The notes: generated by a model not told the origin, from the letters alone. A DNA stretch of 64,000 nucleotides from Amoebophrya sp. A120 (GCA_905178155.1 CAJINV010000020.1:620001-684000); one strand, 5' to 3'. Positions 11,318 through 64,000 are shown, counted from the stretch's first letter. A program made the numbers and translations.

Positions 11318-12800
11318 AAGTTTTTGAATTCCTACGAAATCCGGATGGGGTTCGGGCTGCACTTATCAAATGCCAAAATGTCTGGGTCTGGAAGATTCCG
11401 ACATCTGTCATGCTAGTCTGGCATGACTCTGAGCTCTGTATTGCGTGGCCGCAAAGAGCTCCTACTCCCTGTCATGCAAAAACGCAGTTTCTCATGCGGG
11501 ATACGGATACGCAACTCAGAACCATGAGAAAAGCTTGTCATGCTTGGCAGCGCATTACAGTGAGTGAGCTCACTATTCCCTTCCTTGCATCACAAGTTTC
11601 CAGACCCAGACATATTTGCATTTGATAGCACTGCGGGTGGGCGATCGAGGGCGCGATTGGGTCCGAGCACAAAATCGACGCGAGCTACCTGTCGCCGCAC
11701 GTGAACCTGTGTGCGAGACTGGAGACCGCGACGGATCAGTACGGGGTGGATATTTTGTTTTCCGAGCAATTCCACGATTTGCTCTCTTCCAAGGCGAAAG
11801 ACCGTTGTCGGAAATTAGATGTCATCATGGTCAAGGGGTCCAGCAAGGCCATCGGGATCTTCACGCTGGACTTGCACCACACGGCCTCGCAATCCGACAC
11901 TGGGGGCGGCGGCGTGTCCGGGAGCGCGGCGAGTACTGTGCTCGAGTTGCAGGCGCCGGAAGGGCACCAATGCGGAGAAGTGATCACGACGGGCGAGATT
12001 TCGAAGGAAAGCTTAGTCGGAAAGCTGGGAATTTTGTTCGATATGGACCAAGACTTGCTGCGGATGCAGGAGGGCATCACGCCGGAATTCCACACTTTGT
12101 GGAAACAAGCGTTCCACTTGTACATCAATGGCGCTTGGACGCCGGCGAAGGAGGCCCTGATGTATCAAATGCAAAAATGTCTGGGTCTGGAAGAATGCAA
12201 GTTTGTCATGCTTGTTTCGCATGACTCTTAAATCTGTCATGCACATCACCCAAGAGACCCATTTTTCTGTCATGCAGAAACGCAGTTCGTCATGCAGAAT
12301 AGGCAACACCTAGAAGCTCAGAAACTTGCCATGCTGAGCCAGCACTTGCGGCCTCCTCATGATACGCCACCCAGCATCACAAGTTTCCAGACCCAGACAC
12401 TTTTGCAGTTGATATGATGCGGGTCAACGCCATGCGGATGCAGCTCCAGCACCGAGCCGACGGGTATGGCGGTCTCAACTGTTACATTCTCAACTGTTAC
12501 ATGAATTTGTGATGCAAGAATGGCAACAGTCAATGGCGCAAGGTTGCTGCTTTCGCATCACAGCTTCGGCACAGATTTAGATGCTGTTTAGCCTCTCTGA
12601 GATTTGTCATGCGAAGCAGCTTGATCATCTCGCGGCTTAAGGTAGTCTTGCATGACAAATTTATTTGAGTATACGGTTGAGAATGTAACGTTTGAGAACT
12701 CCATAACGGGCCCAGTGAGTGCCTGCTGGCGTACATGCAACAGCTGGATTTTTGTCCGCCCGAGGATTGGCAGGGGTACCGGAAGCTGGAGTCGAAATAG
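11318..12800 (+). CDS. Class III adenylyl cyclase, C-terminal part (4 exons)
   Basis: Spliced MGFGLHCGWAIEGAIGSEHKIDASYLSPHVNLCARLE...DGPSECLLAYM..DWQGYRKLESK*, typical of alveolate adenylyl cyclases. Confidence 0.92.
11364..11627. mobile_element. Introner family A1
   Basis: TIR tatcaaatgc.aa.atgtctgggtctggaa; DR GCACT/GCACT; restores LHCGW. Confidence 0.95.
12163..12414. mobile_element. Introner family A1
   Basis: DR TGATG/TGATG; in-frame removal. Confidence 0.95.
12465..12705. mobile_element. Introner family B (opposite orientation to the other B copies)
   Basis: TIR tatgg.g.tctcaa..gttacattctcaac; DR ACGGG/ACGGG; restores DGPS. Confidence 0.95.
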
Positions 12801-13735
12801 TGAGAAGAGGAGCGGGAGGTGGCTTTCATGAAAAAGTCGATGACCTTCTATTCCTGAGCGGGCTTAACGTTTCCTCGCGAGGACAGAAATTCATTCTCAA
12901 GAGTTTTATTTTGCAATTTAAAGAACTGGATCGGGTTTTCGCTTTCGGGATTTTTGAGTGAACACAATTTAAGTAAACAAGCTAAGGCTGCAAAAGCCGC
13001 GGAGGACACATCTACTGGACAGAATAGTTGTATGAAGTTTTAACCGAAAGAGATGAAGAAAAGTTTACGAAAAAGTTCAAGTTGGTTCTCGGCACCTCCA
13101 TTACTACGCGGGGCGGAATACGGGCGAATAGGAAGCGACACAGGGGCTACATGAATTGAAGTAACGCTGCTGGTGTTGTCCACGTAAGCCTGAGCGAGAG
13201 CCGCTGTGATATTAGCAGTGAGTGAACAGGTGCACAGTCATTTTTTTCACAGTGGAATAAAGTCACGAAAGACAAAGAACTACGGCCCATGTAATCTCTC
13301 GTTGCTGTGCACGTGCACGACGAGCGTGCTGAGAAGTCGCCTTCACTTGGTGAGGCTGAGCAGAGGCATGTTGTTCGATCCCACCGGTCTCCATGAGGAA
13401 TCAGATCCACTGCTCTTAGCTTTTTTTTTTCGATGGATTTTTTGGGAAGTAGCGCATTGCCGGTGCGTATTTTTTTTGTTTGAAGATCAAGAAAGTGATC
13501 GACCTGTTGGGATTTTTTTTTGTAGTCTGCGCATGTCCCTTTCCTTTGACTGCTCGTCTTCTTTGTATTCTGTGGTTCCTCAGTCATTGCTTCGATCGAT
13601 AGTTTTGTCGTGCTGTAGTTCATCGTATGGCGTGGTAGCTTTATTGCAGCTTATTATTTCCAGCATCCAAGTAGACTGCTCAAAAATCGTCTTGCACCTT
13701 CATATACGTCAAAACTGCAACGAAAATAGAGCATC

Positions 13736-16700
13736 ATGGCAAAATCCAGATCTTCGAGAGCTTCACCGCGATCCGGTGGAAGCAAGCGGGGGGGAACTGC
13801 ACCCGCTGCTACTGTGCGTGCAGCTTCTCAGCGTCCGCCTGGAAGCGCGCGCAAGATGAGAAAGCAAGCAGAAAAGGCTGCAATGGCGGAGCAGGAAGAT
13901 GAAGATCATGAGCGTCGTTCTGCGTCTCCAGGCGCGATGAAACAACCTGTGACGACCGCCACGCCACACAAACGGCAAGTGCGAGGAGCAGGGGCGGCGA
14001 AGGCAAAAAATCTTCAAGCTCAACAAAATCAACAAGCAAAAGGAAGAGGATCTTCTACTGCATCCGCTTCGCACAACAATAAAGCAGCGGCCAGCCCGAC
14101 CGCGGTGCAGCAGCAGAATACGCTAAACGAGAAAGTTGATGGTTTGCTCGAAATATGCATTGCAAAAGTAACGTACTCGTATAAATGCATTACAAATTTC
14201 CTCAGCATGTGAAATAAAATTTGTAATGCAGATTTGCCTTGGAAACAAGATTTGTAATGCAAGACTTGCATTTGTACGAGTGCGATACTTTTGCACAGGA
14301 TACGAAAAAACCGAGCTGCTGCTCGACCAACTCTCCACGCCTGGCCAAGAAAAGCGGCAGCTAGCCGGAGTAGAGTCTGTAATGCTGAATCCAGGGGGCG
14401 CTGGGGACCACGGGGATCACCAGGCTGCGGCAGAAGTTCTTGCGCCGACCGAGAGCTGCAACGAGTGGGCGCCGCTGCCATCGTTTCCTAGCTACGAAGG
14501 TACTGAAAGTGAGTTGTGATTTGGATCATGTGGACAATGAAGATGGTTCAGTGTGCTGCGAGCGACGTAAGTAAGTACTTAGTTACTTGTACTCGGCTTG
14601 TTTTGCTGCAGTCTGTCACTTCAGGTTCGTTCAGATCTGACAGCATTATAATAAATCGTTCCAGTAAATTTTCACTACATGATCAGTTTCAAGCTCAACG
14701 GCGGACGCTGTGTACCAGCGGTTGCAGGCGCTGGAAGCCAAAGTCGAGGACCTGCAGTCAGAGCTGACGGTGAAGAGGCAATCCGTTTCTGTGTCCGTTG
14801 GCGCGGATCAACAGTCGTGCGCTGCTGATCTAGTACAACAATTACCGGGACCTCGTGGTGCACAGTCCTTCTCCTCTGATACAGCAGCGCTCGAAGTGCA
14901 CCATGCTGCACCGCTTTCAGGAGTAGGAGGAGGTGCACGACCAGGTACAACTTCGTTGACCAGTGGGGATGAACAACTGCAAGGCCGTGAAGGTACCCCT
15001 CAAATATTCGAAAGCAAAGTGGACGACATGCTGCGTCGGATTACCTCGAATAGCACAGCAGATCATGTTGGAAGGAACTCTCGCTCTTCCTCGACTTGTA
15101 GAACCAGGTTCGGCGCCTTAAACCTGCAGAAAAATGCGACTTCGGAAACACCAAATCGTTCCACCTTGTCGAGCACCAGATATAATAATGCTGCTCGGGG
15201 TTCCAGTTCCTCGACCGTTGGCTTTCTGGCAGGTGATAACTTTTTGTCTACAACTTCTTCCCAGCAGAGGACTACAGCAGCCAACGGAGCGGTAAACATC
15301 GTGCCAGACCTGGTTTTGATGGGTCCAACTACGACGACCCATTGCAGTTCCGTGCTCCAGTCCTCCGGGCCAGCACCTGCAAGGACTACACCAGGAGCTC
15401 CTCCACGACAAGACGCGACATCGACTTCTACTTCTGCGTCGGCGAAGAAGAATAGGCAAGGCGAAGGCGTAGCATCAACTACATCTGTAGTTCTTGGGGC
15501 GGGAAAAAAAGCTGGATTTCCGCGGTTTCAGCCTGTGACCACAGGCGGAGCCGAGTCTAGTGGTGGGAGAAAAGCTGCAGGACAACCCTTGCTGGGCGAT
15601 GAGGACAATTTCGAGATTTTTGAAGATCCGACCGCAGGTGCCGTTGGGACTTGTGCGGAGAAAACTGGGATAAACAAAGCGTCTGTGGACCAGCACCAAC
15701 CTCCGTCGATCTCGGAAAAGGGTCTAGAGCAGCTTCCTAGTGCAACTCCAGGCGGGACGACCGCGGCCGCGGGTACCAGTAGCTCCTTTCGTTGGATGAA
15801 ACCTGGCTCTATGGTCGATGAGAAGCAAGTGCTCAAGACCCGCGACACCAAGAATGTATCCTCTCAGGCGAATCATGCGGGAACACTGAACCACTTGCTC
15901 CCGCCGCAACCGCCATCTCAACATCAGCAACTCACGAGTGCTAATTTAGCAGCCACGTTTCCCACCTTGCTACAGACGCCGAACACAGGAAATGTGTTGG
16001 GTAGTTCCGGTGGCGGCGTGGTTGGTTATCGCAACCCAATGCTGTTTCCCGGTAGTACGACAGGAGGTGTACCTGGGGCTTTTCCGATTCTGTCAGCCGT
16101 TTCACCATGCGTTTCGGCTGCTGGCGATTCCGATAGCCACAAGTCACCGCTTTTTGGGGTTTTCCCGCAAACTACGACGAGTGCAATGCTTGTGTCCACG
16201 AAGACCGGAGCTGAAGCAAATGCAGTTGCGAAGGGCAAAAATGCATCAGGAGTACAAGCAGCATCGAAGAGTGTAGCGAATAAAACGAAGCCGACCAGCA
16301 AGCAGCTGGTCCAATCGCAACCATCTACGGGCGGGGGCAGGACCACAACCACAGCCACAGGAACACTACGCTCTGCGGCGCAAGCTCCAGCTGCTGATGC
16401 ACCGATAATCAACATCAACCAGGAGCACCAGGGACGACGAGGAGGCCAAAGTTGTCAACAGCAGCATGTGCATGGCCCCCGAAGTTCTTGTGCCACCACC
16501 ACGACAAGCGTAGTTACTGGTGAGCGCTACTCTCCCCGAGGAAAGCTGCAGAAATCCATGAAAAGCACACCGAGTACGACAAGCCGAGGTCCGCCGGCGA
16601 TGGCGTCGCATCAAGCGAAGGTCACGACGACCTATGGCGGCAAAAAGGAACAAATAGCCACTGCTTCGTCCCTGCTCGAGCCATTTCCGAACCAACCTTA

Positions 16701-19802: not shown

Positions 19803-22800
19803 ATGAGCTGGCTTTTCGGGTTTGCGGACTCCGCCACGGCCGCGGAGCCGGCCCCCATCTCCCGGCTCCGGCGCACAAAGCTCGACGTGGAGTTTGGGAT
19901 TGAATGCGACTACCTGGTCGTTGGCGCCGGTCTGACCGGTCTTGCCTTCGCTGATGAGCTCGCGACGCTGAACCCCCGCGCGAAGATCGTCATTGCCGAC
20001 CCGAACCCCGAGCCGGGTGGCGCGTGGGTGAACGCGTACGATTTCGTGCGCCTGACCTGTCCCCGCGAGGACTATGGGGTGAACAGTCTGCCCTTCAACG
20101 CCGTCACGAATTTCGACGCGAAAATCGACGCGGGAACCGGACAACCGAAAATGTCGACTACGAGCGGGAGTGCAGCAGCAGAATCTGCTGTGCAAGCAAA
20201 ACCGGAGGAGCGCGCCAGCAAGCGCGAGGTGCTGCGGTACTGCCGGTCCGTGGCCAAGCGGCTGGAGCGAAAGGGAAATGTCCGGTTTTTCTTCCAGGCC
20301 GGCTACAAGGGCGCCTTCACAGCGGGAACATCAACGCCGGCGGAGATTTTTCATTTGGTGGAAATCAAAATCGAGGGCGAGCGGGTTATTTTCGACGAAG
20401 GCTTGGGTGGATCTTCAGCCGGTGAAACAAGCTTGTATCGAACGCAGCCGAAGGTTCTGCACCTCGACGAAACCACCGGGAAACCGGTGCCGGAAGTGTC
20501 CACCACGCGGTCCTTTTTGATGGCGCGCGTGAAGTTTCAGGTGGTGGACGCCACAGGGGACATGTTGGCGGCCCGGACCGGGCAGCTGCACGGGGGCATC
20601 GTGGGGGTTCGCGTGTCCCCCGACCACTACGACGTGAAGTTGTTACCGCCCAAGCAGTATGGGTTGCAAAAATGTCTTGATCTGGAAGATTGCAACTTGT
20701 ATTGTAATGCTGTCTTTGGATTCCAAAAAAATCTGTATTGCGTGACCAGCAACAGGACTCCAGTGCGTGTTACGTGGAGAGGGCATTTCCCATGCGGAAT
20801 AGGCATCAGGAAGCCCTCCAAAAATCTGTGATGCTGAGGCATGCATTGCAGGCATCATGGATCATACAAAATACGCATGACAAACCTGGTAATGTTCCAG
20901 ACCCAGACAGCAGTTTTGCATTTGATAAGCAGTTCGCGTGGTTGACGACCAACGCGCTGCGCGGAAACGACCCGTTGACCGAGCGTGAACCGCACCGCCA
21001 GGACTACGCGGAACGGAAGAGGAAAACCGGATTTCAGCACTTGGCGCACCGGATTGTCGTGCAGTACGACCAGAACCAGAAGGGCGGCGCTGGCGGACGA
21101 GCAGGTCGCGGCTCTCATGCGATGAACAAGAAGAAGTCGCCCAATTCATCTGGAGCAGGATCTACTTCGTTGGTTGTACCGGCTGGTGCAAGAAGTAGAG
21201 CTGGTGCTCCCGGAGTAAACTCCCTGGTCTTGACATCTTCCAGTTCAGATTTGACCAGTGCAGGAGGTGGAGAGGACAACAACTCCACGACTTCCGGAAG
21301 TGACGGTGGAGGAGCTTCTCCTGGAGGTCTCACTGCCCGCGCTCAGAACGCAGCCGCGACTGCGACCCGCGGAAATGAGATGAACCACGAGGAGGACTTC
21401 GAGGACGAGACAGCCTACACGTCGCAGAAACAACAACTTTTTGAAAACACGAGGTGGAATGAGCGGGAACTTCTTGAACACAACAGCGAGATGAACCATG
21501 ATATGGATTTCTACGACGAGCAAAATTACGACGGGAATGCGTACGATGCGGATCTGCAAAACCTGATCGACTACGAGGCCTCCGAAACCAGCGACCTGAG
21601 TCCCGCACTAGTACAACATCATCATAACTTCGAAGCTGTCACGCACAACTCGTTACAGGTAGAAACCACGAGTAGCGAGGTGGAGGCGGTGCAGCATCAG
21701 GATCAGCAAGAACGCACTGGTACTCTGGTGAACACCGGCACGACGACCGGGACAGCCGGCGAGTCGAATACAACGTTTGAAGATGCTGGAGCTAAGATGA
21801 GGCCCATGATCTTCAGTACAGAAGACCGGATGTTGCGCAAAGATTCGCAACCCGCGCTTGCAGCTCCACACCAAGAAACTACAAGCATTCCGCGTACGGT
21901 AAGCGCGTTGCGCAACGCCTCGTCGATATCCCCCAGAAAAAGACCGACAGGTCATATTTGTAATGCAAAAATAAATAGACAAAAAAATCTGTATTGCATG
22001 CCCTAAACAGGATGTTATGGCCTCGCCCATGACAGATTTTCCTGTGTATTTATTTTTGCATTACAAATATGACCTGTCGGTCTTTTTCTGTGGGATAGTC
22101 GACCATGTCGCCAAAGAACATTTTTGCGCTGCACGACGGCGTATCCTGTGCAAAAGTATCGTACTCGTAGTAATTGCAAACATGCATTACAAATCTTGTT
22201 CGCAAGCTAAATCCGCATTACAAATTTTATTTCTCATTCTGAGGAAATTTGTATTGCAATTATACGAATACGATACTTTTGCAATGCATACGGCGCCGCA
22301 ACGCCCGGGGGCAACAAAGATTTCCGAACGTCGGGAAAGGATACCTTGGTGAAAACCACATCGGATCTCTTCCGGGGCACAAATTATACTAACCGAAGCG
22401 CAGGTGTTTCTACTTCTCCTGCAAGCGTCAATACTGCCACGGCCACCGCTAGTGCAGCTGCTCCCTCTCGCCCAGTGTTCGCGCTGCCGAACCCGCAGCC
22501 GCAAGAGCGCGACCGCCCCCCAAGGGGGCGGCAGACGGAGACACTGTTGAGTGGCGCGGAGGATTCGAATGCAACTGGGGGGTACGACCCCCTTCAGAAA
22601 TTTGTTAACCCGGGCGGGAGGAGTAGTGCTGCTGCTATGTCTAACTCTAGTCCACCTGGTGCAGCAGCAGGTTTCAGGCCAACATCATCTGTGTTCAATG
22701 CCACTGCGCAAAATTACCGCCCAGAATCGTCTACTTCGTTCGGCGCTGTAGTTACTACACAACGGCACCAAGGCGCGTTCCACAAAAATCACCCAACCCC

Positions 22801-25800
22801 CACGGTGCAGGCAAATTCAATTCCGCCGAAGAAGCAGCCGCTGACGACGCTGAGTGACTTTCTGCAACCGGCACTGCAGGGCCAAACGGGAACGGTTGCG
22901 GAGAAAATCGGATCGCCCAAGCCGCCGCCGCGACAGTATCTCTCGGCACTGGAGTCCCTACCGGGCTTCATGACGACGCTACCCGACGTCCTTTCTTCGT
23001 CCAGCAGTGAGGACGAGGAAATACTAAACGCTACTAGTGCTGACAATAAACACAAATCCGACGCGGACCGACGCTCCACCACCGACGGGGGTAACAACAC
23101 GACGACTTCTGCGGCGGAGGAAAATTCCTCGAAAGACACAGGAAAAATGTCAAACGAAAAGAACAAAAAGACGCGACGTGGTGGGACCACGATCGGTGGT
23201 ACTACAACTACATCAACGGCGAACACCAAGAAATCGAAACTTGTGATGCTGCACGACCAAGTGTGGACGTCGAAATCCCTGGAAGACGCCCTGGTCGCTC
23301 CGCCGACGGACAACGCCGCTAGTTACATCGTGATTGGGGGCGGGCAAACCGGGGTGGACTGCATTTCGGATCTGATCCTCCGGAAAAACGTGGATCCGGA
23401 CCAAATAACCTGGATTCTGCTCCCGAACGTCAATTACCGCATCGACTTGTTTGACAAGGTTGCCCGAGCGGCGGGCATGTTTATGCGCGGGCAATCTGCG
23501 ATGGATCTTCTCGACGAGGAAAAGAACAAAAACAACGACGCCACTGGAGGTCAAAAGCAGCAGCAGCGTCGCGAGCTGGGAAAGACGACCACTTCGTCCC
23601 CAAACTTACCGACCACGACGATCACGGCTGTTCTCACGAAGCCGGAGATGCGGGCGTGCAAGCAAGTGCACCAGATCCTGTACGGAAAGCCGACCCGGTT
23701 TGTGGACAAGGCGGGCGAGGCGAATTCCGTCGTGGAGATCCACTTCGAAAGCGGCCGCGCCGTGGAGTTGTCCCACGACGGGCGCGTGCTGGTGTTGGAC
23801 TGCGCCTCTTCCGTGCACGACCGGGCGACGGCCGCCAGCCTGGAGATCGAGCGCGACGGCGCATTATCCTGTGCAAAAGTATCGTACTCGTACTAATTGC
23901 AAATATGCATGACAAATTTTCTTCCTAAGGTAAAACAGCATTACAAATTCCACTTCTCTTCGTGCCAAAATTTGTAATGCAATTTATACTAGTACGATAC
24001 TTTTGCAATGCATGCGCATCGGTGGAACGGGTGTGGACCACCGCACCGGTGCTGCATCACGCGATTGAGGGCGCAGGATCATCTTTTTCGGGGGGCAACA
24101 TTTTGTCGGGAAGAACAAATAACGAAACATCTGCTGTGGCCTCGAAAAAACCTCCCGCAGCTACTGCTTCTTACTTTCCCTTCAGCTTGCTGACATCCGT
24201 GCCTGAAAATGAGGACGAGGAGCATCAGCCTGACGAGGAGAACCAGAACCAGTCCAACACTAGTTCCTCGTCTCTGAATTCCGGGAATCCGGAGTACCAA
24301 TTCTCCAACGCGAAATACATCAATCTCCGGTCCCTCACCCACGTTGCGCCGCTGAACCAGCACTGTTTCCTGGCTACCGTGATCGCGTTTCTCGATATGA
24401 CAGTGCACAACTCCCCCTCTCCCTCATTTGTCATGCAAAATCCCAAATCCAGTCGCTTCCCTGTCCCTGTGGCACTGTTTGCATGACAAATTTTGAAAGC
24501 CCAAACAGTACTGCAGTAGGCACATAAATTTGTCATGCACAGGCTCCAGGGTCGCTGGTGTTTGTATTGCTGTTCATGCAATACAAATGAGGGGGGGCTG
24601 GAGTTATGCACTGTCATACCCGAAACGGGGCTCCAGGACCACGACTTCCAAACCGCCTGGGAAATTCTGCACGACGAAATTTCCCTGTCCGCCGCCGAGG
24701 CGCACCAGGGCCTGGACGCGGAGGAACGTACACAACGCAAGTTCCGCGGCCCCTGGAGCGTGTGGGAGCGCCGGGTGCTGCACTACCTGCACAAATCGGT
24801 ATTGGAGAAGGCGATTTTCCCTGGAGAACAAAACCAGCGGCCCCCGACGGTCGCGGAGGTATTTGTGTTGCAGGCGAACGTGCGGAACATGCTGGTTTTG
24901 CCGTTTCTCGTGGTATCAATTGCAAATATGTCTGGGTCTGGAAGGTGGAAACTTGTCATGGTAAATCTGAAGCATGCAAAAATCTGTGTTGCATGAGTGC
25001 CAAAAGCTGTCCACTTTTGACCAAGGTGGAAGGGAGTTTCTCACGCAGGATAGGCATGGCAGAGACCTCGCAGAGTCTGTCATGCTAAGTCCCGCATTCC
25101 AGACCCCATGGGTCATGGAAAATCTTCATGACAAGATTACACTTTTCCAGACCCAGACACTTTTGCACTACTTGATACGTGGTAGGAGATGACAACGCGT
25201 TTTACCAGCACAAAAGCTCCATGTCGGCTCCTCGCGGCGGAGGTGGTTTTCTTGGGCGGTCTGGAGCAACGTCTTCCAATGCCTCCGCAACAAGCAGCCA
25301 CAACAAATTGCGATCCGGACTCTTCAACACGAAACTGCAGACCCACGGCGCCGCGTCCAACAACCTCGGGTCGAATTTGCTGGACCCGCTGTGTCACACG
25401 CCGGCCTTTCGCGTCATCGCGGCGTTGACGCACTACTTGCCGGTCGAGGTCTTCAACAATTGGGTGAAGTCGAAAAACTATCACAGTTTGACGTCGGAAC
25501 ATCAGCGGGGGGAGGATGCTGAAAGAAATGCGGGTGCCTCTCTTACAACGGTGCCTGGAGCAGCGAGCTCTCCCTTTGCCCCTCCGGCGCGCACTAAAAC
25601 CGCGCCGAAAAAACCCGGCCAGAAGCTGCCGAAGCGGTTGTTTCCCCTCCACCGGCCGGCGCTGATGGAGCGGGTGGCAGGACATATCCTGAGTAAAAAC
25701 GTCCCCACACCAGAGTCAGGATGTGGATGGGGATTTTGCAACACAAACCTAGGAGCTTTGTGAGTCACGCATGACAAGTTGCACTCCGCAGTGTAGTGCA

Positions 25801-41900: not shown

Positions 41901-42098
41901 GCGCTCCGGTGTTCGCGTTCCTGCCCTCCGCCGTAGTTTTTTGGTTTATAATAGTATGCAGCGGCGGTAGGAGCGTTAACGCTGGGCAGCCACCTTATTT
42001 CAACCAGAATTTCTTTACTTCATCTCTTTCTGCTCGCGCTGATGTAGGGGTGCCGCTCGCTGCTCCGCGTCAGAGCAAGGTAAGAGTTATTGCCCCAC

Positions 42099-45000: not shown

Positions 45001-45298
45001 TCTGGAAGAGTCCAAGGCTTGTCATGCTCTGCTAGCATGACTCCAAAGTCTGTCATGCACATTACCCAAAAGCCCCATTTTTCTGTCATGCAGAAACGCG
45101 CTTTGTCATGCAGAATACACAGCGCCGTAGTTACTCAGAAACTTGTCGTGCTGAGCTGCCAATGGAGGCGTCCTCATGATTGTCCTACCCGCATCACAAA
45201 TTTCCAGACCGAGACGCATTTGCAATGCATAACCCGGCCTCTGTCCCGGGGCGGAGCGCACCGTGCAAGGCGTGAATGTGGTCGCGGTGAAGGGGTAG
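42099..45298 (+). CDS. Class I SAM-dependent methyltransferase with N-terminal hydrophobic signal/anchor
   Basis: VLDVGAG, DILRIPLASNSIDIIILDQVLEHLPHP..ELHRLLKPKGG; intron ~42813-43122 and introner 44978; ends VNVVAVKG*. Confidence 0.85.
44978..45231. mobile_element. Introner family A1
   Basis: DR ACCCG/ACCCG. Confidence 0.95.
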
Positions 45299-49200: not shown

Positions 49201-52200
49201 GCACCCGCTGGTCCCGAGAATGCACAAGAGCTACCCGCTGCCAATAAGAAATCTGCAAATAAGCCGAAGAAAGAGAAGCAGCCGGTAGCTGCGACGGGCA
49301 AAACTGCTGACACTGATGCAGCTCCTGCGGTAAAAACCGATAAGGGAGATAAGAAGACGAAACGCACTAACAAGGGTGAGGGCAAGGTCTCTAAGAATCA
49401 TTCCAAAGGGAAGGATAAGGAAGCTGCTAGCGCGACGTCGTCGAAAAAAGGGCGAAGCGCAGCGAAGAGAGGGCGCAGCCGCGGGACAACTGATTTGGAG
49501 AACTTGACCGACGCAGAGCAAGTTGACCTCGGGGAGGCAATAGCCGAACGGGATGTGAAGGAAGGGCGAGTGAAGCGGCACCGGAAGCCGAAGCATCAGA
49601 GAAGCGCTTCATCACACGCTAGGGCCCAGGAATCCTCCGGGGACGAGGCAGATGTGCAAAAAGCCGCGGTGAAAAAGGTGAGACGGTGCTGGTGCCGGCA
49701 AATTCTCTCTTGATCGATTTGGCTGAGCAGTTTTTGTCTTTCAACATGCTTGCAAAGTGATGAAATCAGAATTTATTCGTCGCTTGAAATTTCAGCATTG
49801 TTTCAAAAAATTTCTTTACAGCACCTCCCCACGATCCTGCGGCCTCCGCAATCCTTCCGAGAGAAATTCAGCACCGCCGCGCAGCACGCCGCTGGATTGT
49901 GCACGTAGCAATTGCTTTTTGTTCTTATTTCTGTTTCGGACCACGGTGATTTCATGTTCAAGTGAATTTCAAGCTTGCACCACTTGCTCCCCTTGGCTTG
50001 TTCGACAGGGACTGCGAAAATCGCAGGGCAAAGAGATTTATGAATACTGCATTTACAATTACAACAGGCCCTGCCAATTCTACCACACCAAAACTGGGTG
50101 CAAGAACGGCGCAGATTGCAAGTTTTGTCATCTTTGCCCGAATATGCATTGCAAATATGTCTGGGTCTGGATGGATGCCAGATTTGTCATGCTTGTCTGG
50201 CATGACTGAAAAGTTTGTGATGCGTGTCCAAGAAGAGACCCTTTGGCTTGTCATGCAAAAACGCAGTTTGTCATGCAAAAAGCGCGACACTAAGTCGCGC
50301 AAAAATTTCCCATGCTTGGCTGTGCAACATTACAGGGCATCCGCTATTGGCAGCATAGCATCACAAGTTTCCAGACCCATACATATTTGCATTTCATACC
50401 GAAAGGAGTCCAGCAGGCTTACAAAAAGACGAAGAAGCGGCTTTTGAACGCCTTGAGCTATGAACAGGCGCTGTGGTACTTACTTAATGGATCCTAATCA
50501 TTCCCAGCACACGAGAAAACCAAAACGCTAAAAAGTGTGTGCCCATCTGTTCTGTGTGACGGTTTGAAGCCGCTTTACAGGAAATAAGATATGAAGCGAA
50601 ATAGATCAGCTTTGTCTATACATTTGTATAAAACTGTCACGTCTTCTTCTTCACTCCAGGTGTTTCCCCGCTCAGACGATGGCTTTTTCCGGCGGCGACG
50701 GCATGATGTACGTCTACTACCCGCCCGACGAGAGTAATGGATACGCTGGCGCGGTAGCCCAGCTGCCCAACACGGAGGCGCTTCAAGACCCCACCGCCGC
50801 ACCCGTGGTGCACGAAGCTTTGCGGCTATCCAAGAAAAAAAGTGTGTATAGTGTAGCCGTGTGGGAAGAGCAGCATCAGCATTACAAATTCGTTTTGCAT
50901 TACAGAAGAAACCTGTCATGCGCAGCTAGTTCGTGAAAACACCTACTACGAAGCATGGCTATGACGCACTTCCAGCATGACAAGTGTAACGGTTCTTTTG
51001 CACTTTCTGCATCACAAACCCACACTCGCGCAGTTTTTGCGTTGCATAATGGCTCGCGGCACTGCAGGCCAGCGGTACGGTGGTGGATTACGTGGATCCT
51101 TTATGCAAAACAAGTTTCCCGCACAAGTACAAATAAACGCATCAAAAATTTTGCCAATTCAAACTCGTAACACTCGTCATGCTGACCAGCACTGAAGGCC
51201 TGTTTTGTTATGCAGGAGGCCGCGCATTCATTTTTTTTTGTACGTCACGCGTGCGGGAAATATACGTGTGGATATCCTTCAGGAGCCGGGGGAAGTTCTG
51301 CTGGTGGTAAAAAAGCCTCTAGCTCTTCCAGTTCTTCGGCCAGTGCTGGAGTTGAAGACGGCACGGACGACTGCGACAAGAGTTCGGAGCAAGATAGTGC
51401 TGTAGTTGTTCAACCAGGTCACGACAACGGAGGCCCTCTTGGAGCGGCAGGACTACTAGTTGGGCAACAGCAGCAACAGTATAACTACCAGCCGTACTAT
51501 CCGACACCATTGGGCTACAGCACGTACAACAATTATGGGAGTGTCAGGATCGGAATCGTCAGAGTTGAGATAATTTGTGATGCATTAAACGAATACCAGT
51601 TGGCGCCTAGTTTGCAAGTGGCGCATGACAAATTTGGGTAGAACTGAAATCCGGTTTGTAATGCTGTTTGGGTAAGAAGACGCCTTTTGTCATGCTACCT
51701 AAGCAGCTCAACTGCTACCCCTCATAGGCTTAAATGCATCCGTTCTTGCGTCATCTGCAATAGAGGCATTTTTTGCGTTGCATATTATGCATCACAAACT
51801 ATTTCAACTTTGACGATTTCGATCCTGACACATGCATAACAACCCCGCGATGTTTCAACCGTGGCTCTTTTTCAACAACAGCGGGTACGGACCAGCACCA
51901 GATATGGATTGCAAAAGTATCGTACTAGTACTTGCAAATTTGCATGACAAATCTTTTGGCTTTTTCTAAAGGTAGACCAGCATTACAAATTCCACTGGTC
52001 ATCATGCTGAGCAACTTTGTCTTGCAATCAAAGTACTATAAGTACGATACTTTTGCCATGCATACCAGGATCATTCTCACAATACAACCCGTACACCATG
52101 CCAACGGCTGGATCGGTCCTTCCTGATGGAGAAATCGTGCCTCCGCCGCCAGCGGAAGAGGAGGAGGAGCCTGATGCTGCGGAAGATGGTAGCGAGGAAG

Positions 52201-54455: not shown

Positions 54456-57400
54456 ATGTGCTGCCTCCCTTGCTGCGGTCCGTTGGGGGCTGCTCCGCCG
54501 AAACTGCGGTGTTTAGCCTACCTCTTCGTCGTTGCCGCGGTGCTGCTGGATTTCATTCTGCAGTTTCCGGTGACCTACAAGAATTTTGCGTACTTTCACC
54601 ACAACGTGGTCCACGACAATGTGGACACACTGTACCGGAAGCCGAATGTTGTACAAACCGCAGGTGAAGATGGCACAGGAGCTTCATCAGCCTCGTCCCA
54701 GCAGACCTTTTGGTCCAGCATGAAAAAGTTCTTTACTGACAAGGCCAACCTGGTTTCCGAAAAGCTGAAATACCTGACCGGCAACCGGGTTTCGCTGTTA
54801 AAGGCGAAGAAAAACGATAGCGCGAAGATCACGGTGCTGATCAATCAGTTCCAGCGGCCCTCCTGCTTGCGGAAGCAGTTGCGGGTGCTGCGTCGGTGCT
54901 CGATCGTGCACTCGATCTACGTAAACTGGTTCGATTTGAAGAACCCTGTTCCGTCCAGCGTGCAGGACTTCATCAGAGGCAGTGAGGACAGCGACGAATT
55001 TACCAGTTCATCTGGAGGTACCTCCGGAACAACTTCGACAAAAGGCGAGGGTGAGTTTGTCGAGGAGCTGGAAACCGAGCCGGAATACCGCATCTTTCCG
55101 CCAAGCCGACTCTTATCCGAGGAGGAGCAGAATAATAGCAAGATCGACAGGAGGATGAACTACTACGAAGAACAAGATGGGACCACGGCAGCTGATATGG
55201 CCGACAAAGAAGTAAAGGCAAAAACCCCTAAAGTAGTAGTAGAAGATTTCTATGCGGAGAAGCGGATGACCAGCTCCAGCCGGGCGAAAAAAAACAAAAA
55301 GCGAGGCCAGAAAGCCGCTTCTTCGGACATCAACCAAAAAAAAAATCCTGAGAAAGGAGCATCAAAGAAGGCCCCGTACCGATTGACAGAGAAGTTTCGA
55401 CCGCATCTGTTTCCTACAGACGCGGTTTTTGTCACCGATGTCGACATGTTTTACTCCTGCCACGCACTTCAGTTTGCCTACAACGTCTGGTCGCAGTACA
55501 ATGAAAACGAAGTGGAAGATATAGGAAACGTCCGCGCGGCACGAACAAGGATGCTAGAAGCGGCGGCACCTAGCACAGCTGCCACGGCGAGTCCGCCAAC
55601 AGCAGCGCCAACTGGTGTACCGCCTCCAGCAGCAGCCTCTGTAGCTGCAGCTCCATCCGAAATAAAACCCGTCGCTGCGGCGCCAGTGCCCGACGTTGCA
55701 AAGGCGATCGCTGCGCAGACTGCGGCGGTAAATGCAGTCGCGCAGGCAACGAAGGCGGTCGTAAAACAGAATTTGGACGCTCTTGCAGCGGCGAAGAACA
55801 CAGCTAATATGGACCAGGTGAAAATCCAGGCGGTGCATCGGGATCCGCACCCCACGATCTCGCAGTTCGTCAAAGCGGTGGGGTTTCATCCAAGGTACTT
55901 GTCCCGCATATGCATTGCAAAAGTATCGTACTAGTGCGAGTAGCATGACAAATAACAAATATAATGGCAATGCAGTTTGTACCGCTGTTACTGTCATGCA
56001 TGACAGCAATGAGTACGAGTTTACGATGCTTTTGCATTCGATGCCGCACCGCTAGTTACGATTGGTCGCTGAGTTACCGACACTCCCAGAAGTTCCTGCA
56101 CAATACCATTTTTGTCACCAAAGGGGCGCTGATTCACAAAGATTTGTTTTCCGATTTTTTCAAGCCAGAATACGAGAGTTTGAGGCAGCTCGTGGACCGG
56201 GAATTCGCGGGGGCAGATTTGCTGATGAGCTACGTGCTGGCGATGGAGTATTTTTTGTTTTTGAAGCGTCTTTTTCAAGAAGTGCACTTAGATGAAAAAC
56301 GCTAAAATCCGCCCTGCACCACTGCAACCTGGAACAAAATACAATCACAACTACTTCAGATACGGCCCCCACGCCTTCCGTGCGCTCTGTCCGAAAGAGA
56401 ACTACCACCTCGCCACCGCGGAGTCCTGTTCCGCCAATCGGCGGCCGAGCAACGTGTTCGCGCCGGTGCCGACGGGTGTTGAGGATACGATCGATTACGC
56501 GTACGACGCAGAAGCGGACATGCTGCTGGAGTACAATTCCGTCGGGCTGCGGAAGGCGAAACTGTCGTGGCGGCTCGCGTTCGAAAAAAGGCGGATGATC
56601 AAGCGGATCTTTGGAACGCAAAAACGAAACTATCTGAACAAGAACGTCAGGCAGCTGGAAGTCGGTGCTCCTAACGCCGAGATTATTGGGGCGTTGCATT
56701 CATCTCCGCCAAGTTCTTTCAAAGCTGAAGCCGGAAGGTCGACGGCTGCAAGTAGAAGTAGTCCCGAGGGACGAGAAATAAAAAAGGAGAATACAAGAGG
56801 CAGAGTGGCGGAACTACTAGGATTACACGACTTTTCTGTTCAAAAAGAACTACCTCAAGCGTCGAAAATAAAGGCACAAAGCACCACTACACCAGATGAA
56901 ACACAAGAAAGCCGAGAAGATGAAAACTATCCTCGTTCCCTTTCCCCGGCGGGTTTTGCGTCGACTGCCGGGTCGGCAGTGGCGCACGCCGCAAGCCGCG
57001 TCCCGTCGCACGACTCGGTGGACAGTGTGCTGGCGCGTGCGTTTCAGGGGCCCCCGGGGGCCTATACCCGCAGTAAGGACGAGGAGGGATTTGTATTACA
57101 ATGAAAAATGCCCCCAACCCAGAATTTGCAAAAGTTTCTCATGCAAAGTTCCCAAATAAAAGCTTTTTGTCTTGCATGAAAGGACTACGAGCCTTTCTGA
57201 TGCAGAATGTAGTTGCGCAAGGTAACTTTTGCGCACGACAGATCAGGCTGCTGTTGGGCCGCTTTGCAACACAAATTTGAGCTATTCAGCATGGAAAATT
57301 TGTGTATGGATATGCAAAACGGGGAGTGTTATTCCATTGGAAAGGTTTGCAATACAAATGCTGCGAAGTTTATCTGGGGTGGGGGCATTTTTCACTTTCG

Positions 57401-57770
57401 TAATTTGCGCTCAAGTCGAAGGTCTCCGAGTTCCAGACGTACTACGCAAACAGCGTCATTTGGGAAAGGCAAACCAGGTATCGATGAATGTTGTTGAAGA
57501 GTGTTTGTGTTGTAATGATTCTACTGATGTTGGACGATAATCTTCATCCCTCCCGACATCCTCCCCTTCAGTACTTTGCTTGTGCTTTAAGTGGAAAAAA
57601 ACGAACAAAGTATCATGGCAAGGAAATAACTTCACACCAGGTTCTACATGGACTTTTGGCGGTGGATTGACCGACAACTATTCGGAATGTGGAACCAACT
57701 AGACTGTCCGTCGGCACCCTGGCGGTCAATATCCGCCGAACAATTCTGGTTTATGCAGAAGGTTCACTAG
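54456..57770 (+). CDS. Glycosyltransferase family 64 (EXTL2/exostosin C-terminal-like), type II membrane protein
   Basis: N-terminal TM; ITVLINQFQR, EKFRP..TDAVFVTDVD..FAYNVW, VGFHPR, TKGALIHK, DLLMSY; junction near 56249-56341 unresolved; last exon inferred. Confidence 0.85.
55909..56043. mobile_element. Introner family C-like (ends ATG)
   Basis: DR CCGCA/CCGCA. Confidence 0.9.
57094..57402. mobile_element. Introner family J (reverse of 34488; ends GTA)
   Basis: DR ATTTG/ATTTG. Confidence 0.92.
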
Positions 57771-58953: not shown

Positions 58954-61900
58954 ATGTTTTTCGACCAACTACCGCCAGCGAAGAGACGTCGCAAGGGCAG
59001 CTTTGCCAATGTGCCGGCCTCGACGCCGAAGCGATTTTTTTTCGCCTTGATGCCCTCACGGTGGTCCAACATTATACAACCATCGCGGCTAGTACAACGA
59101 GTTCTAGTACAACTTCTGCCGCTCGTCCCCTTACTTCTTCTGCAGAACATTCATGTCGCTGCCTACACAACGAAGGAACATCGTTCTTGGGACTACACGA
59201 ACTGGACCATTAGCGACCGCGTCGAGGTCTTTTCGACGGACCAGTTTCCGCAGTACAGCTGCTACAAAATCCCCTACCTCTTCCAAACGCTGAACGGGAC
59301 CATACTGGCCTTCGCGGAGGCCCGCGGGCTATGGATTGCAAAAATGTCTGGGTCTGGAAGATTTCTAGATTTGTCATGCATATTTTCCATGACCAGCGTA
59401 ACGATACGATGTCTGTGATGCATGCTGTAGCATCACAGAGTTTTAGAGCGCTCTGTGATACCTCTACCGCATGAGAAACGAGCCCTCCGCGTAGCACAAA
59501 CTGGAGTCCTCTTGCTGGTCATGCAATACAAATTTTTTCAGAATCCAGAGACAGCATTACAAGTTTAGAATGTTCCAGACTCGGACACTTTTGCATTTGA
59601 TACGGGCCGACGGACGACAAATCTTCGATCGGAAACTGCATGGACTGGGACATCACGGACGTGGTCCTGCGCAAGTCGTACGACGGGGGCCATACCTGGT
59701 CCCCAATGACCACGCTGCTGCTATCACGAGAAAAAAGTGTTACAGTTACACATTTGTTGGAGTTTCTGCATCACAAATTTTCTTCGTACGGCAGAGAAAA
59801 CTTGTAATGTGAAGATCATAAGGGAAAACAGGAAGGAAACGAGGCTCCCAAGCATTTCCTGCGCAAGAAAGGTCGTCTGTGTTGCCGGTCTTGCAGCGCA
59901 ATGTGTCATTGTAACACTTTTTTCTTGCGATAGCTCCGCGGCCGGTACGACTGGCACTTCGTGGTCGGGAACCTCGTATCAAATGCAAATATGTCTGGGT
60001 CTGGAAGATGATTGCCAGGTTTGTCATGCATATTTTGCATGACCACCCATGATCATGATGCCTGTAATGCATAGTCTAGCATTACAGATTTTTAGAGGTT
60101 CCTGATGCGTATCCCGCATGAGAAATGCCCTCTCCGCGTAACACAAACTGGACTTCTCTTCCTGGTCATGCAATACAGATTTATTGTAGAATCCAGATCC
60201 AGCATCACAAGTTGCATTCATTCTTCCAGACCCAGACATATTTGCAATGCATACGTCGCTCCGGTGCAGGACGAGTTCTCGGGCCGGATCCTCCTCCCCT
60301 TCACCCGGGGCAACTCCCGCATATGAAAGCCTCAGAATGGAAATCCTCAAAGTGGAACTAATTTGTGATGCATGAAATGCAAGGCAAAAAAGACTGTATT
60401 GCAAAGGACACAAGGGGGACCGACTATTGTCCTGCTAGGGGTGAAGAATTGGAGTGCTGCTTAGCACGAGAGAAGGGCACCCCTTTGTCTTAACCTGCAT
60501 GACAGACATGCTTTAAGGGCCCGGGAAATTTGTCATGCGCCGACTACAAATGGCGTCTGAACTGGAATCGTTTTTTTGCACGACATATTATTTCCATTTT
60601 GAGGATTTCCAACCTGAGGCTTTCATACCGCATGTGGCTCACCTTCAGCGACAGCCAAGGCGAGAGCTGGGCGGACCCGTATAGGTTGAATTACGAGGGG
60701 TTTTGGTGGACCTGGGTGGGGTTCGGGCCCCCCGCGGGGCTGCAGATGAGCTACAGCAAGCTGTACCGGGGCCGGCTGATCATTCCGGGCTACTTTTCCG
60801 ACTCGCCTGTGTTTGACCTCACCGCCATTTTTGCCAGCTCGGCGTTTTTGTTGATTTCCGACGACGGCGGGGCGAACTGGGAGCGGGTAATTGTTTCAAA
60901 CGGCAACCAGGTATAAAAGTGCACAACTCCCCCTCCCCCTCATTTGTCATGCAAAATCCACAATCCACGCCTTACCTCTTCTTGGCACTGTTTGCATGAC
61001 AAATTCATCTGGCGGCCCAAATAGCACTTCAATCCTGTGCAAATTTGTCATGCAAAACCTGCAGTCTAGCTGACGCTTGTATTGCTGTTCATGCCCAACG
61101 AATGAGGGGGAGGGGGAGTTGTGCACTCTCATACCAGGAGCTGATCCCCGGTATCGCGGGCAACGAGGACCAGGTCACCGAGATGTGTATCAAATGCAAA
61201 AATGTCTGGGTCTGGAAGAATGCAACTTGTGATGCTGCATTTGGATGTCTAAAAAATTTGTGTTGCATGAGCAGCAAAAGGAGGCTAATTTCTGCTACGC
61301 GGAGAGGGCATTTGTCATGCGGAATAGGCATCAAGAATCCCTCAAAAAACCTGTGATGCTAGTGCATGCATCACAGACATCATGGCTCATGCAAACCGTG
61401 CATGACAGGTCTCAAAATCTTCCAGACCCAGACCTTTTTGCATTTGATAATGTGCGACGGATCCTTACTGCTGAACATGCGGACCTGGATCGGTGACCGC
61501 GTGCAGTCCTGGAGCTACGACGGGGGAAAAAGCTGGAGCGTCGTCGAGCGCACGGCGCTGCCGAACCCGTTTCAGGGGTGCCAGGGGTCGGTGGTGAGTT
61601 TAAATAAACACGTCCAGCTGTATTCGGGCTTGGGGCTATGCATTGCAAATAAAAATGTATCGTACTAGCGTACTAATTGCAGACATGCATGTTGACAAAT
61701 CGCCTTCCTTAGCTAAAACAGCATACAGATTTTATTTATCATGCTAGTGAATGCAATTTACACTAGTGCGATGTAGTGGCTTTTGCCTTTCATAGTTGCC
61801 GCCGGAAAGCGACTGGGACGCCGTTCGGAAGGATCTGAAGCTGTGGACCAGTGAAGACGGCGGGAGAAATTGGGTGGAGAGAATGGTATAGATACTTAAA

Positions 61901-64000
61901 GTACGCTTGATGAATGTTATTGCACGCTTCTTGATAACGGTTCGATATCGATACTAGATGTGGATGATAAAGTGTTCGAAGATGATGATCCTACAAGAGA
62001 TGAAATAAATTCGAAAACTACAAACTCCTACCACAGATCATCCACGAGGGCGGTGCATCGTATTCCGCTCTCTGGCGTCTGCTGGACGGGCGGATTGCGG
62101 TGATCTATGAGATTGGGAACCTGTCGCCAATTTTCATCCCTTTGAACATCTACGTGAAGATCCTGCCCCCGTTGGATGAATTTCTCTTCCCCGCCGGAGG
62201 TGCAACTGTCCTTCCCGACTACTCATATGCATTGCAAATATGTCTGGGTCTGGAAACTTGTGATGCCAAGTGGTGACGACTGAGCACACTCCTGAGTGCA
62301 GTCAAGCATGACACATTTTCAGGACGCCTTCTCATGTGTAATGCGCATGAGAAACTGCGCTTTTGCATGACAAAGAATTCGCGCTTTTGTGGGGCCGCAC
62401 GCAATACAGATTTTACAGGAGTGGTAGTGGAAGACACGCATTACAGATTCCAATTTTTCCAGACCCAGACATTTTTGCACTCGATAACCCCCCCGCCGAC
62501 ACAACCTCCTTCGCCTCCATGGGCTGCGCCGCTTCGTTATGAAATGCAAAAGCATCGTACTAGTATAAATTGCATTACAAATTAGCTCAGCACTACAAAT
62601 AAAATTTGTAAATGCTGTTTTACCTTAGGAAAGAGATTTGTCATGCCGAACAGCAATTACTACGAGTACGATACTTTTGCAGAGCATATTCGTCTCCTCG
62701 GACTGCGTACCGCACCGAGCCGCGCAGGTTCTGGCACATCGACGGCACGGACGCGTTTGTCCCGGTGTCCAGCACCGGGGTGCAGTACCAACAGCAGGCT
62801 GTTCTAGTACCTTCCGGAACGGGAACGACTAGTAGTACAAACGCGACGTTGTCTGCAATGATAAACAGTGACTACCCGACCACCTGGCGGCCGTTTCAGG
62901 TGCACAGTATGGATTGGCAGCAGCGACAGAAGTCCCGGTTTGATTCCAGCAGCTTCATGTTTTCCTTCACGTGGTGGGTGGTCATGTTGCTGCTGAGCAT
63001 CACCTTTGTGCTCAGCTTGCCTCTCCTCTTCCTCAGTTCGATGTGCTGCTGCTTGCCGACGTGTCGGCAAAGAAGAAGCAGTGAATTTTTGATCGTAGCC
63101 GGCGGCTGTGAGGGGAACTGTGCGGCGATTGGGGGGAACTTGCGGGAGAAGCTGGCTTCTCTAAAGCGTACTGCGGCCACTGCGAGGGACACAAATTCGA
63201 TGAAACAAGTCGTGGAACAAGAAGATGAACCACTCCAGTGCGCCGAAGATTCATCGACAGCTGCGGGAACCACCAGAGCCAAACCGGAAAGAAATACCGG
63301 AGATACAACTAGCGCCACTGTCAATATGGTTGACCCCCGTCGCGAAGAACAAGTCGAACTGGCGAATCGGAAAATAAATCTTCCGGCGGGAAGATCATGC
63401 TCGTCCTCGTGCACGACGACGACTGATGTCGAAAATATTAAAGGACTACAACAGCAGCTGCAAGATGAACGGAGTTCCTGCAAAAATAAAAGACAAATGA
63501 AAGAACATGAACATGATCGTCAACAACGACAACGTCAACACGATATTATGATGAAGGAGGACGCAAAGTGGTCTACTTCACCTACTACACAGCCGGTGAA
63601 CATGGGTGAGAACCAAAACCATGAAGGTAGTTTCAAAACACTGCTTGAAGTAGAACAAGAAGCATCAAGCTGCTTGAAGACCGAAAATGCCAAAGACTTT
63701 GGCGCCCTCTACCTCGCCGACAAGGAGCTGCAGGCTGGTGAGCAGGAGAAGCAAATGCGGATGCCATGCAAAGAGTCCGATCTCGTCCTCGGCGAATCAG
63801 AATCAGTTTCGATCACCTCGGTGAATTTCACGGACGCCAACAGCACTGCGACGCCAGTTGACCAGGAGACGGATCAGACCTCCAAAACGGATTTGAATAC
63901 AATTTTCGTACCACCCGCTGGCGTGACGAAGGATGTTGACGATGAGAATGGTCTACAGCTTCAGAAGTACTACTCCGCTACTTCAACTTCCCCAGGGGAC
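58954..64000 (+). CDS. Sialidase/neuraminidase (GH33-like, BNR repeats) with C-terminal TM helix; runs off the window
   Basis: YKIP..LAFAEARG; Asp-boxes SYDGGHTW, SDSQGESW, SDDGGANW, SYDGGKSW, SEDGGRNW; NE, NMR, ASYS; 9 introners plus GT-AG intron 61886-62036. Confidence 0.92.
59330..59602. mobile_element. Introner family A2 (reverse)
   Basis: DR CGGGC/CGGGC. Confidence 0.95.
59722..59932. mobile_element. Introner family H
   Basis: tatcacgagaaaaaagtgttaca / tgtaacacttttttcttgcgata; DR GCTGC/GCTCC. Confidence 0.93.
59977..60253. mobile_element. Introner family A2 (reverse)
   Basis: DR CCTCG/CGTCG. Confidence 0.95.
60322..60627. mobile_element. Introner family K
   Basis: TIR tatgaaagcctcag..tggaaatcctcaaa.tggaa.taat; DR CCGCA/CCGCA. 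Confidence 0.95.
60912..61133. mobile_element. Introner family E
   Basis: DR CCAGG/CCAGG. Confidence 0.95.
61188..61449. mobile_element. Introner family A2
   Basis: DR ATGTG/ATGTG. Confidence 0.95.
61637..61794. mobile_element. Decayed family C introner
   Basis: DR GGGGC/GTTGC; in-frame LGPPESDW. Confidence 0.85.
62226..62486. mobile_element. Introner family A1 (reverse)
   Basis: DR ACTCA/ACCCC. Confidence 0.92.
62538..62688. mobile_element. Introner family C
   Basis: DR TTCGT/TTCGT. Confidence 0.95.

Follow-up and report, generated by a model that had tools for sequence, protein, structure and literature searches.

Here we describe the introners of a 64,000-nt stretch of the Amoebophrya sp. 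A120 genome (GCA_905178155.1 CAJINV010000020.1:620001-684000), called the window below, with positions counted from its first letter. The 36 introners, elements with TAT...ATA ends, total 8,160 nt and leave 55,840 nt outside; they belong to several families, which share a nine-letter motif (the 9-mer) placed at stepped distances from the element ends. A reading of the sequence alone, made before this analysis, had pointed to such an arrangement. For the whole A120 genome, 29,850 repeated introns have been reported, falling into 1,954 families (PMC7789003).

Introners of the window

A search blind to the motif, pairing TAT...ATA ends with a 5-nt direct repeat, yielded 31 clean elements, and 5 more were added through stray motif clusters. 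Their anatomy consists of an inverted repeat with a TAT start, seven loose nucleotides, an A-run at positions 11-15 and direct repeats at the borders; TAT was a search condition in calling the elements, while the A-run was not. This agrees with the published description of A120 introners, in which an inverted repeat starting with TAT is followed by seven loose bases and then at least three A, with short direct repeats and non-canonical splicing (PMC7789003). Family lengths, about 106, 149, 209, 222, 256-262, 278, 305 and 321 nt, likewise agree with the published table (PMC12130899).

A perfect 5-bp target-site duplication (TSD) borders 26 of the 36 elements (Table 1). Among 441 pairs collected without regard to the TSD, the duplication measures 5 bp in 284 and 6 or 7 bp in none; no target preference was found among these pairs, nor any base preference at the last TSD position. 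The TAT...ATA elements are non-coding elements with terminal inverted repeats (TIRs), 5-bp target duplications and no target preference.

Table 1. Introners and associated features of the window. Offsets: nucleotides between element end and 9-mer, left / right; in, inward; out, outward. Label: name in the sequence-only reading; q, distance quoted there.
Feature	Label	Positions	Offsets	TSD	Remarks
Introner F0	A1	11364..11627	41 in / 32 in	5/5	
Introner F0	A1, q	12163..12414	40 in / 32 in	5/5	
Introner F6	B	12465..12705	42 in / 47 in	5/5	
Introner F1	C, q	14154..14302	33 out / 42 out	5/5	
Introner F0		20658..20927	44 in / 44 in	5/5	
Introner F11	D, q	21927..22097	31 in / 31 in	5/5	
Introner F1	q	22142..22290	42 out / 33 out	5/5	
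Introner F1		23865..24014	42 out / 34 out	5/5	
Introner F5	E, q	24396..24618	32 in / 32 in	4/5	
Introner F0	q	24914..25177	39 in / 43 in	5/5	
Introner F7	F, q	25685..25969	53 out / 31 in	5/5	all six copies one-way
Introner F0	q	26003..26267	39 in / 44 in	5/5	
Introner F2		29983..30192	45 out / 32 in	4/5	spliced; 215 nt skipped, 29982-30196
Introner F4	I, q	32499..32805	41 in / 41 in	5/5	spliced; 312 nt skipped, 32494-32805
Introner F1	q	33076..33231	42 out / 33 out	5/5	spliced; 161 nt skipped, 33071-33231
Introner F1		34298..34447	34 out / 42 out	5/5	orientation opposite to 33076; spliced; 155 nt skipped, 34292-34446
Introner F10	J, q	34488..34795	42 in / 42 in	5/5	
Introner F6	q	35809..36044	42 in / 42 in	5/5	
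Introner F1		36097..36248	left copy disrupted / 43 out	5/5	
Introner F0		44978..45231	41 in / 32 in	5/5	spliced; 259 nt skipped, 44973-45231
Old F1-like introner		46459..46651	none / 47 out	3/5	spliced; 198 nt skipped, 46456-46653
Introner F0		50143..50398	41 in / 32 in	5/5	
Introner F2	G, q	50827..51048	52 out / 31 in	3/5	
Introner F4	q	51534..51838	41 in / 41 in	4/5	
Introner F1		51903..52064	39 out / 39 out	4/5	
F1-like introner		55909..56043	34 out / 37 in	5/5	
Introner F10		57094..57402	42 in / 45 in	5/5	
Introner F0		59330..59602	41 in / 40 in	5/5	
Introner F2		59722..59932	46 out / degenerate copy at 31	4/5	
Introner F0		59977..60253	44 in / 43 in	4/5	
Introner F4	K, q	60322..60627	41 in / 41 in	5/5	one copy with 2 mismatches
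Introner F5		60912..61133	32 in / 48 out	5/5	
Introner F0	q	61188..61449	39 in / 41 in	5/5	
Old F1 introner		61637..61794	none / 50 out	imperfect	
Introner F0		62226..62486	32 in / 40 in	3/5	
Introner F1		62538..62688	34 out / 42 out	5/5	
Orphan right part of F6 element		11166..11317			outside the 36 counted
Predicted hAT-like DDE transposase gene		6891..10812			minus strand; unannotated; main exon ~6891-10440, upstream ATG exon ~10570-10812
Degenerate palindromic element, 122 nt		10443..10564	motif-like copies ~32-33 from each end		inside the DDE gene; outside the 36

The nine-letter motif and its distance from the element ends

The shared 9-mer reads TTGT(A/C/G)ATGC, within a broader profile AAATTTGT(A/C/G)ATGCA; at its variable position, N, C was counted 382 times, G 190, A 158 and T 5. 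Exact copies in the window number 81 within elements (9.9/kb) and 5 outside (0.09/kb), being about 110-fold denser inside; over 200 runs of a first-order Markov null the copies averaged 0.89, with a maximum of 5. At least one exact copy is present in 33 of the 36 elements. In another assembly, with the elements masked, the figures are 8.8/kb inside and 0.17/kb outside. The motif, which is flanked by A-tracts, is better conserved than the remaining interior in all of 11 families. Equal frequency outside the introners, which would have undone the sequence-only reading, is thus not what the window contains. A convergent pair of motifs 15-17 nt apart (9-mer, 7-nt gap, inverted 9-mer) also recurs in several families.

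The main texts of the published accounts of A120 introners name no shared internal motif, the word "subterminal" occurring 0 times in them (PMC7789003, PMC12130899). No prior description of the motif was found in the literature searched; logos in figures (such as Farhat Fig. S25), the bioRxiv supplements and a 2023 Curr Biol paper on dinoflagellate introners lay outside that search.

At the 72 element ends of the window, the first copy, with at most one mismatch, points inward at 31-32 nt in 13 cases, at 39-45 in 29 and at 37 or 47 in 2; it points outward at 33-34 in 7, at 39-43 in 9 and at 45-53 in 7, and is absent in 5. The first distance class (31-32) is sharp, the second (39-45) broad. All distances quoted in the sequence-only reading are found in the sequence (q in Table 1), including 33/42 for the inverted motif of F1 and 39 at one end of three F0 elements.

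For replication, the pattern of F0 (family A) was matched against 14 of the 64 parts of one other assembly, where it hit 163 stretches corresponding to 152 loci and about 594 kb of unique sequence, which share the elements alone with the window. A motif-blind search of these loci gave 339 candidates at a score of at least 15, as against 5 in a shifted-repeat control; 305 non-redundant, non-window elements scoring at least 16 (610 ends) were kept. Their inward offsets fall at 31-32 in 89 ends, 33-38 in 25, 39-43 in 273, 44-47 in 17, 54 in 10 and 62-63 in 29. The peaks expected near 32 and 41, with a gap near 36, are therefore present, at 31-32 and 39-43 with a trough at 33-38, and a third step appears at 54. 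The 26 ends listed at these intermediate distances mostly owe them to differing small private indels, and form no amplified subfamily. The claim of two quantised distances accordingly stands as far as both classes replicate, but the second is broad, and ends falling off the classes had been left out.

Clustering of 341 elements produced 13 families with at least 3 members, whose inward modes are 31, 31, 31, 32, 32, 32, ~40, 41, 42, 42, 42-43, 43 and 54. All 13 lie within 2 nt of 31.5, 42 or 52.5, an outcome with a chance of about 8e-4 when 7 lineages are counted and with windows chosen post hoc. A step of 9-11 nt recurs inside lineages: 32 and 39-41 in F0, 33-34 and 42 in F1 and F12, 42-43 and 54 in F3. 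At least 6 of the 13 families show the same class at both ends (F4 41/41, F5 32/32, F6 42/42, F9 43/43, F10 42/42, F11 31/31), so that no rule of the 12/23 type governs the pairing of ends.

Further copies fill the interiors, as had been noticed from the sequence, and were mapped in family consensus maps. Adjacent copies in the same direction are 31-33 nt apart, equal to three helical turns, in 16 of 36 pairs and in 10 of 11 consensus maps; the remaining 20 spacings include 52, 63, 75, 83-85 and 95-97, but also 18, 28, 48 and 49. Subterminal repeats occur in both orientations near both ends, and three families (F2, F7, F8) are asymmetric, most or all copies pointing one way.

Such regularity might also be a relic of common descent: one or two founder ends, in which a unit of about 31 nt was duplicated in tandem, could have given rise to the families with no selection on phase. 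Terminal sequence is indeed shared by families, and some arms (the stretch between terminus and motif) contain internal repeats. The terminus of F0 and F1 looks like a degenerate copy of the motif, 30-31 nt away from the first true one, and the spacings 63 and 95-97 are multiples of 32. Yet the motif surpasses the rest of the interior in conservation in every one of the 11 families, whereas the stretches separating its copies have diverged. Lineages also show the step of about 10 nt repeatedly, and the spacings 52, 75 and 83-85 fit multiples of 10.5, not of 32. We regard this origin as very unlikely.

Splicing, strand neutrality and the terminal arm

RNA-like contigs skip an element plus exactly 5 nt, without canonical GT-AG, at six junctions (Table 1); the RNA origin of these contigs was guessed by the tool, none of the listed runs being on record as RNA, but the same contigs also skip GT-AG introns. 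The elements are removed from transcripts as the element plus one duplication. A contig of run X5 reads unspliced through 45202-50166. Two raw-read runs, X7 and X8, covered the window partly, on repeats; at 60322-60380, 155 raw RNA reads of X7 agree with the left end of an F4-type element, but continue into another flank and have three differences in common; they represent an unspliced relative at another locus or strain.

Transcript strand was called by blocks for 185 of the 341 elements, splicing being known for only part of them; neighbours agree 131 to 1, and one of the 25 calls in the window is probably wrong. On the sense strand of these elements, exact copies in the two orientations number 194 and 195. 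Families with one-way copies are inserted 10 times in one orientation and 16 in the other (p 0.33), F1 elements of either orientation are spliced from a single transcript (33076 and 34298), and no exact 9-mer is found in 12 RNA-supported canonical introns (2,215 nt). The motif behaves as a double-stranded DNA signal.

These counts bear on the alternative, raised in the sequence-only reading, of a splicing signal, in which the reverse complement GCAU-N-ACAA would serve as branch point of the non-canonical introns. It does contain U-N-A-C, as in the branch consensus yUnAy, and in symmetric families it stands 31-46 nt upstream of the 3' end (112 of the 185 strand-called elements). Splicing is, moreover, unusual in these genomes, in which U1 small nuclear RNA is reported not to have been found (PMC7789003). 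Against this, in 73 of the 185 elements more than 46 nt separate the 3' end from the closest sense copy, and in 14 the distance exceeds 110 nt or there is no such copy. Position N of the reverse complement avoids A, the base that would pair best with U2. As there is no strand bias, one-way families being inserted and F1 being spliced in both orientations, and the 12 canonical introns contain no exact copy, the branch-point explanation fails these tests, and we consider it highly improbable.

Other observations concern the splice sites themselves. Two spliced introners with mismatched duplications (29982-30196 and 46456-46653, two junctions only) put the 5' cut 1 nt upstream of the terminal TAT. 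Since 8 of the 12 canonical introns start with GTAT, the terminal TAT may double as a donor signal. Within 28373-33519, the terminal CAG of canonical introns is often preceded by an A-rich tract, and not by a pyrimidine tract.

A strand-neutral, phased and A-tract-flanked motif, to which no transposase has been tied, would also suit a chromatin or DNA-binding protein of the host, which would protect or mark the elements and take no part in transposition. The motif is, however, nearly absent from host sequence (0.09-0.17/kb), and it keeps a fixed position with respect to the cut site; a purely host function thus seems hardly probable.

The TIRs were said to differ completely among families, which is overstated. 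All start with TAT and carry the A-run at 11-15, the families labelled A and C share about 14 terminal nt, and those labelled I and K cluster as one family; a C-rich tract is common to several families. The two ends of an element agree at 74-97% per position over positions 11-30 and at 36-74% over positions 4-7; the latter positions usually mismatch. The arm at 14-30 is usually more conserved than the rest of the interior. In F2, F4, F5 and F11 its sequence shifts jointly at the two ends, whereas the body remains that of the family. Arms match better within than between copies in F2 (p 0.0002), F4 (0.0008) and F5 (0.002), the difference not being significant in 8 of 13 families; this comparison involves related copies, selected for TIR score.

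In the terminal stem, G-U pairs do not exceed A-C pairs on the sense strand (151 vs 156; 159 elements), nor does the sense strand fold more stably (94 of 181), which gives no support to selection on an RNA stem once an element has inserted. Since G-U pairs are not in excess on the sense strand, the ends were probably kept matched at the level of master copies, whether through the enzyme, through homogenisation or because splicing has to work in both orientations.

A candidate enzyme and the proposed mechanism

The predicted DDE gene of Table 1 includes a 1169-aa open reading frame (ORF) at 6894-10400 (minus strand), the longest ORF in the window. Only five relatives were found in 1.84 billion proteins, all from Amoebophrya sp. 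AT5.2, where they represent 4 paralogous genes; this places the window in the genus, while the likeness of its elements to A120 introners points to the strain. No viral relatives were found. D28, D128, C158, H161 and E524 are invariant in all four full-length rows, and the CxxH arrangement (C158xxH161) marks hAT, Kolobok, P and MuDR enzymes (PMC3706591). The structural model (pLDDT 52; 38 for a single-sequence model) has the RNase H strand order with a helical insertion. In a fold search of 48,161 chains Hermes (8edg_A) ranked 9, with Z 6.5, root-mean-square deviation 7.0 and 317 aligned residues over 17-562 of the model; it is the only one of the top 50 rows that spans the core, eight helical-bundle rows scoring as high or higher. 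The predicted match is suggestive, not decisive. Searches of Pfam, of PDB sequences, with Foldseek and by word index assigned the gene to no family, and in the ESM Atlas the named hAT-related clusters, with scores of no more than 0.75-0.82 as against 0.90-0.92 for unnamed clusters, are weak leads. Residues ~575-650 resemble an HMG box by eye, without support from Pfam.

The gene is itself interrupted by the degenerate palindromic element of Table 1. Dropping this element plus 5 nt opens the frame to the predicted upstream ATG exon, which is weakly similar to the N-termini of the relatives. As no TIR pair with a duplication was found around the gene, its link to the introners is only an unproven lead. 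Two further facts count against the link: AT5 has the four paralogous genes, yet 99.98% of its introns are canonical (PMC7789003), and elements of other types lie close to the gene.

Among known systems, hAT elements (Hermes, Ac, Tol2, Kat1) resemble the introners in combining a short TIR with many subterminal repeats in both orientations, asymmetric ends and critical spacing (PMC10368747, PMC4763223); Hermes repeats require exact spacing from the TIR (PMC10368747), and hAT5 elements make 5-bp duplications (PMC12730594). The introner 9-mer, however, begins 31-54 nt in, far deeper than the Hermes 4-mer, and introner arms differ among families; no hAT element with TAT...ATA introner ends was found. 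IS3EU/GingerRoot elements share TA..TA termini, those of IS3EU being TAYGG..CCRTA with TIRs above 30 bp (PMC10045372, PMC12730594, PMC6839031). Their duplications, however, are usually of 6 bp, as against 284 of 441 at 5 bp and 0 at 6 in introners.

The recombination signal sequences (RSS) of RAG, like those of Transib, feature a conserved terminus, a 9-mer that follows it at either of two distances differing by about one turn, and a 5-bp duplication. Introners share such a conserved terminus, the two distances and the 5-bp TSD, to which the likeness drawn earlier must be confined: they end in TAT..ATA rather than CA (CMCT clade, PMC12730594), follow no pairing rule between classes, contain many internal copies, and have a spacer arm that is conserved and end-matched, not free. 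Subterminal repeats as such are already familiar; these are known elements with a known kind of signal, in a new instance and with a new geometry.

Taken together, the 9-mer shared by the families, set whole helical turns from the element ends and from its other copies, is probably the double-stranded DNA binding site of one common transposition machinery, on the pattern of hAT elements. The sequence-only reading had proposed a DNA-binding protein phased to the cut site, and the replicated classes, the step at 54, the internal spacing of 31-33 nt and strand neutrality agree with it; the RAG detail does not hold, and a single transposase for all families would go beyond these results. A multimeric DDE transposase would place its catalytic core on the terminal TAT-N7-AAA and a separate DNA-binding domain on 9-mers lying on one helix face. 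As the copies would need to share this face, masters that amplify would retain a first inward copy near 31.5, 42 or 52.5 nt and a second some 32 nt deeper. The family-specific arm at 11-30 would not be read by sequence, yet kept matched at both ends, and splicing would proceed through the element ends and the terminal stem, not through the 9-mer.

Several points weigh against a single machinery. The second class spans 39-45, and outward copies at 36 and 45-48 and internal spacings of 18, 28 and 48-49 are off phase. The phasing of the 20 spacings varies with the assumed period (p 0.49 at 10.3, 0.03 at 10.5, 0.001 at 10.7) and is partly mirrored, and thus lends weak support. The sample, fetched by the F0 pattern, is skewed, 299 of the 610 ends being in one cluster, and, since the families are related, the distance classes are in part a matter of inheritance. 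Conservation within families is about as high for the arm at 14-30 (0.70-0.96) as for the motif (0.84-0.98), which fits family-specific enzymes too. No transposase family was recognised in 221 ORFs and fragments of the loci (~0.6 Mb), and no autonomous element was found; Farhat et al. 2021 (PMC7789003) likewise report no transposase in A120 and reject a general mobilisation by transposases.

Several related transposases, each reading its own 30-nt TIR and sharing only a 9-mer-binding domain or a host DNA-bending cofactor, would account for arms conserved per family and matched at the two ends, and the DDE gene does belong to a family with 4 paralogous genes in another Amoebophrya strain. But the arms of F2, F4, F5 and F11 change at both ends together within one family body, and a new enzyme would be needed for each subfamily, in a genome for which none was reported (PMC7789003). 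We consider this rather unlikely.

Starting from the shared machinery, a more specific and more speculative proposal, which we think unlikely, is that one divergent hAT-like transposase, encoded by the 6891-10812 gene or a paralog and no longer lying within an element of its own, moves all TAT...ATA families in trans. It would read only the terminus and the phased 9-mers; the free, end-matched 20-nt arm would double as the stem for U1-independent splicing, and the enzyme's own gene would be interrupted by its substrate.

Elsewhere, long elements (834 nt in L026, 1104 in L018, 631 in L056, 481 in L055, 457 in L028) contain no transposase and no integrase-like ORF, and 17 short-extent unpaired ends gave no transposase. 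Four of the long elements (L026:632-1465, L018:505-1608, L056:3862-4492, L028:10307-10763) have ordinary introner ends, captured or inserted interiors and a perfect 5-bp duplication each. Nearly all 58 A120 families are listed as TIR DNA with unassigned superfamily, family 38 being listed as Ginger-like with a 5-bp TSD and TA/TA termini (Gozashti et al. 2025, PMC12130899, dataset sd07); the L026 element resembles it in size only. Family patterns had no match in viral contigs, nor did an Rfam search give any.

Decayed motif-bearing elements or stray motif copies were noted in the window at 5474-5593, 5844-6023 and 51102-51223, the last matching family F12. Elements of other kinds include a 241-nt inverted-repeat element devoid of the motif (6556-6796) and, within a GC-rich stretch (39200-41700), a 784-nt element (40185-40968) with TGTCAA...TTGACA ends, a TIR of about 25 nt, a 6-bp direct repeat and no 9-mer, which forms a separate system of the TG..CA type. 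The GC-rich region 588-3465, with long nested inverted repeats (588-650/3403-3465, 759-850/3201-3292, 848-998/3052-3202) and an internal 218-nt palindrome at 1584-1801, probably represents a large TIR element of a different kind.

Among cases in which mobile elements have added introns, A120 is a very strong one, and the published view is that no transposase or shared signal explains the gain (PMC7789003). A common phased end code makes many families one system with defined cis requirements. The motif offers a probe for the enzyme by pull-down and a signature for autonomous copies and related elements elsewhere, and it separates mobility signals from splicing signals in a lineage with no detectable U1. 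Were a single hAT-like transposase indeed to act in trans, it would explain how non-canonical introns came to number tens of thousands within one genome, spread over hundreds of families that look unlike each other.

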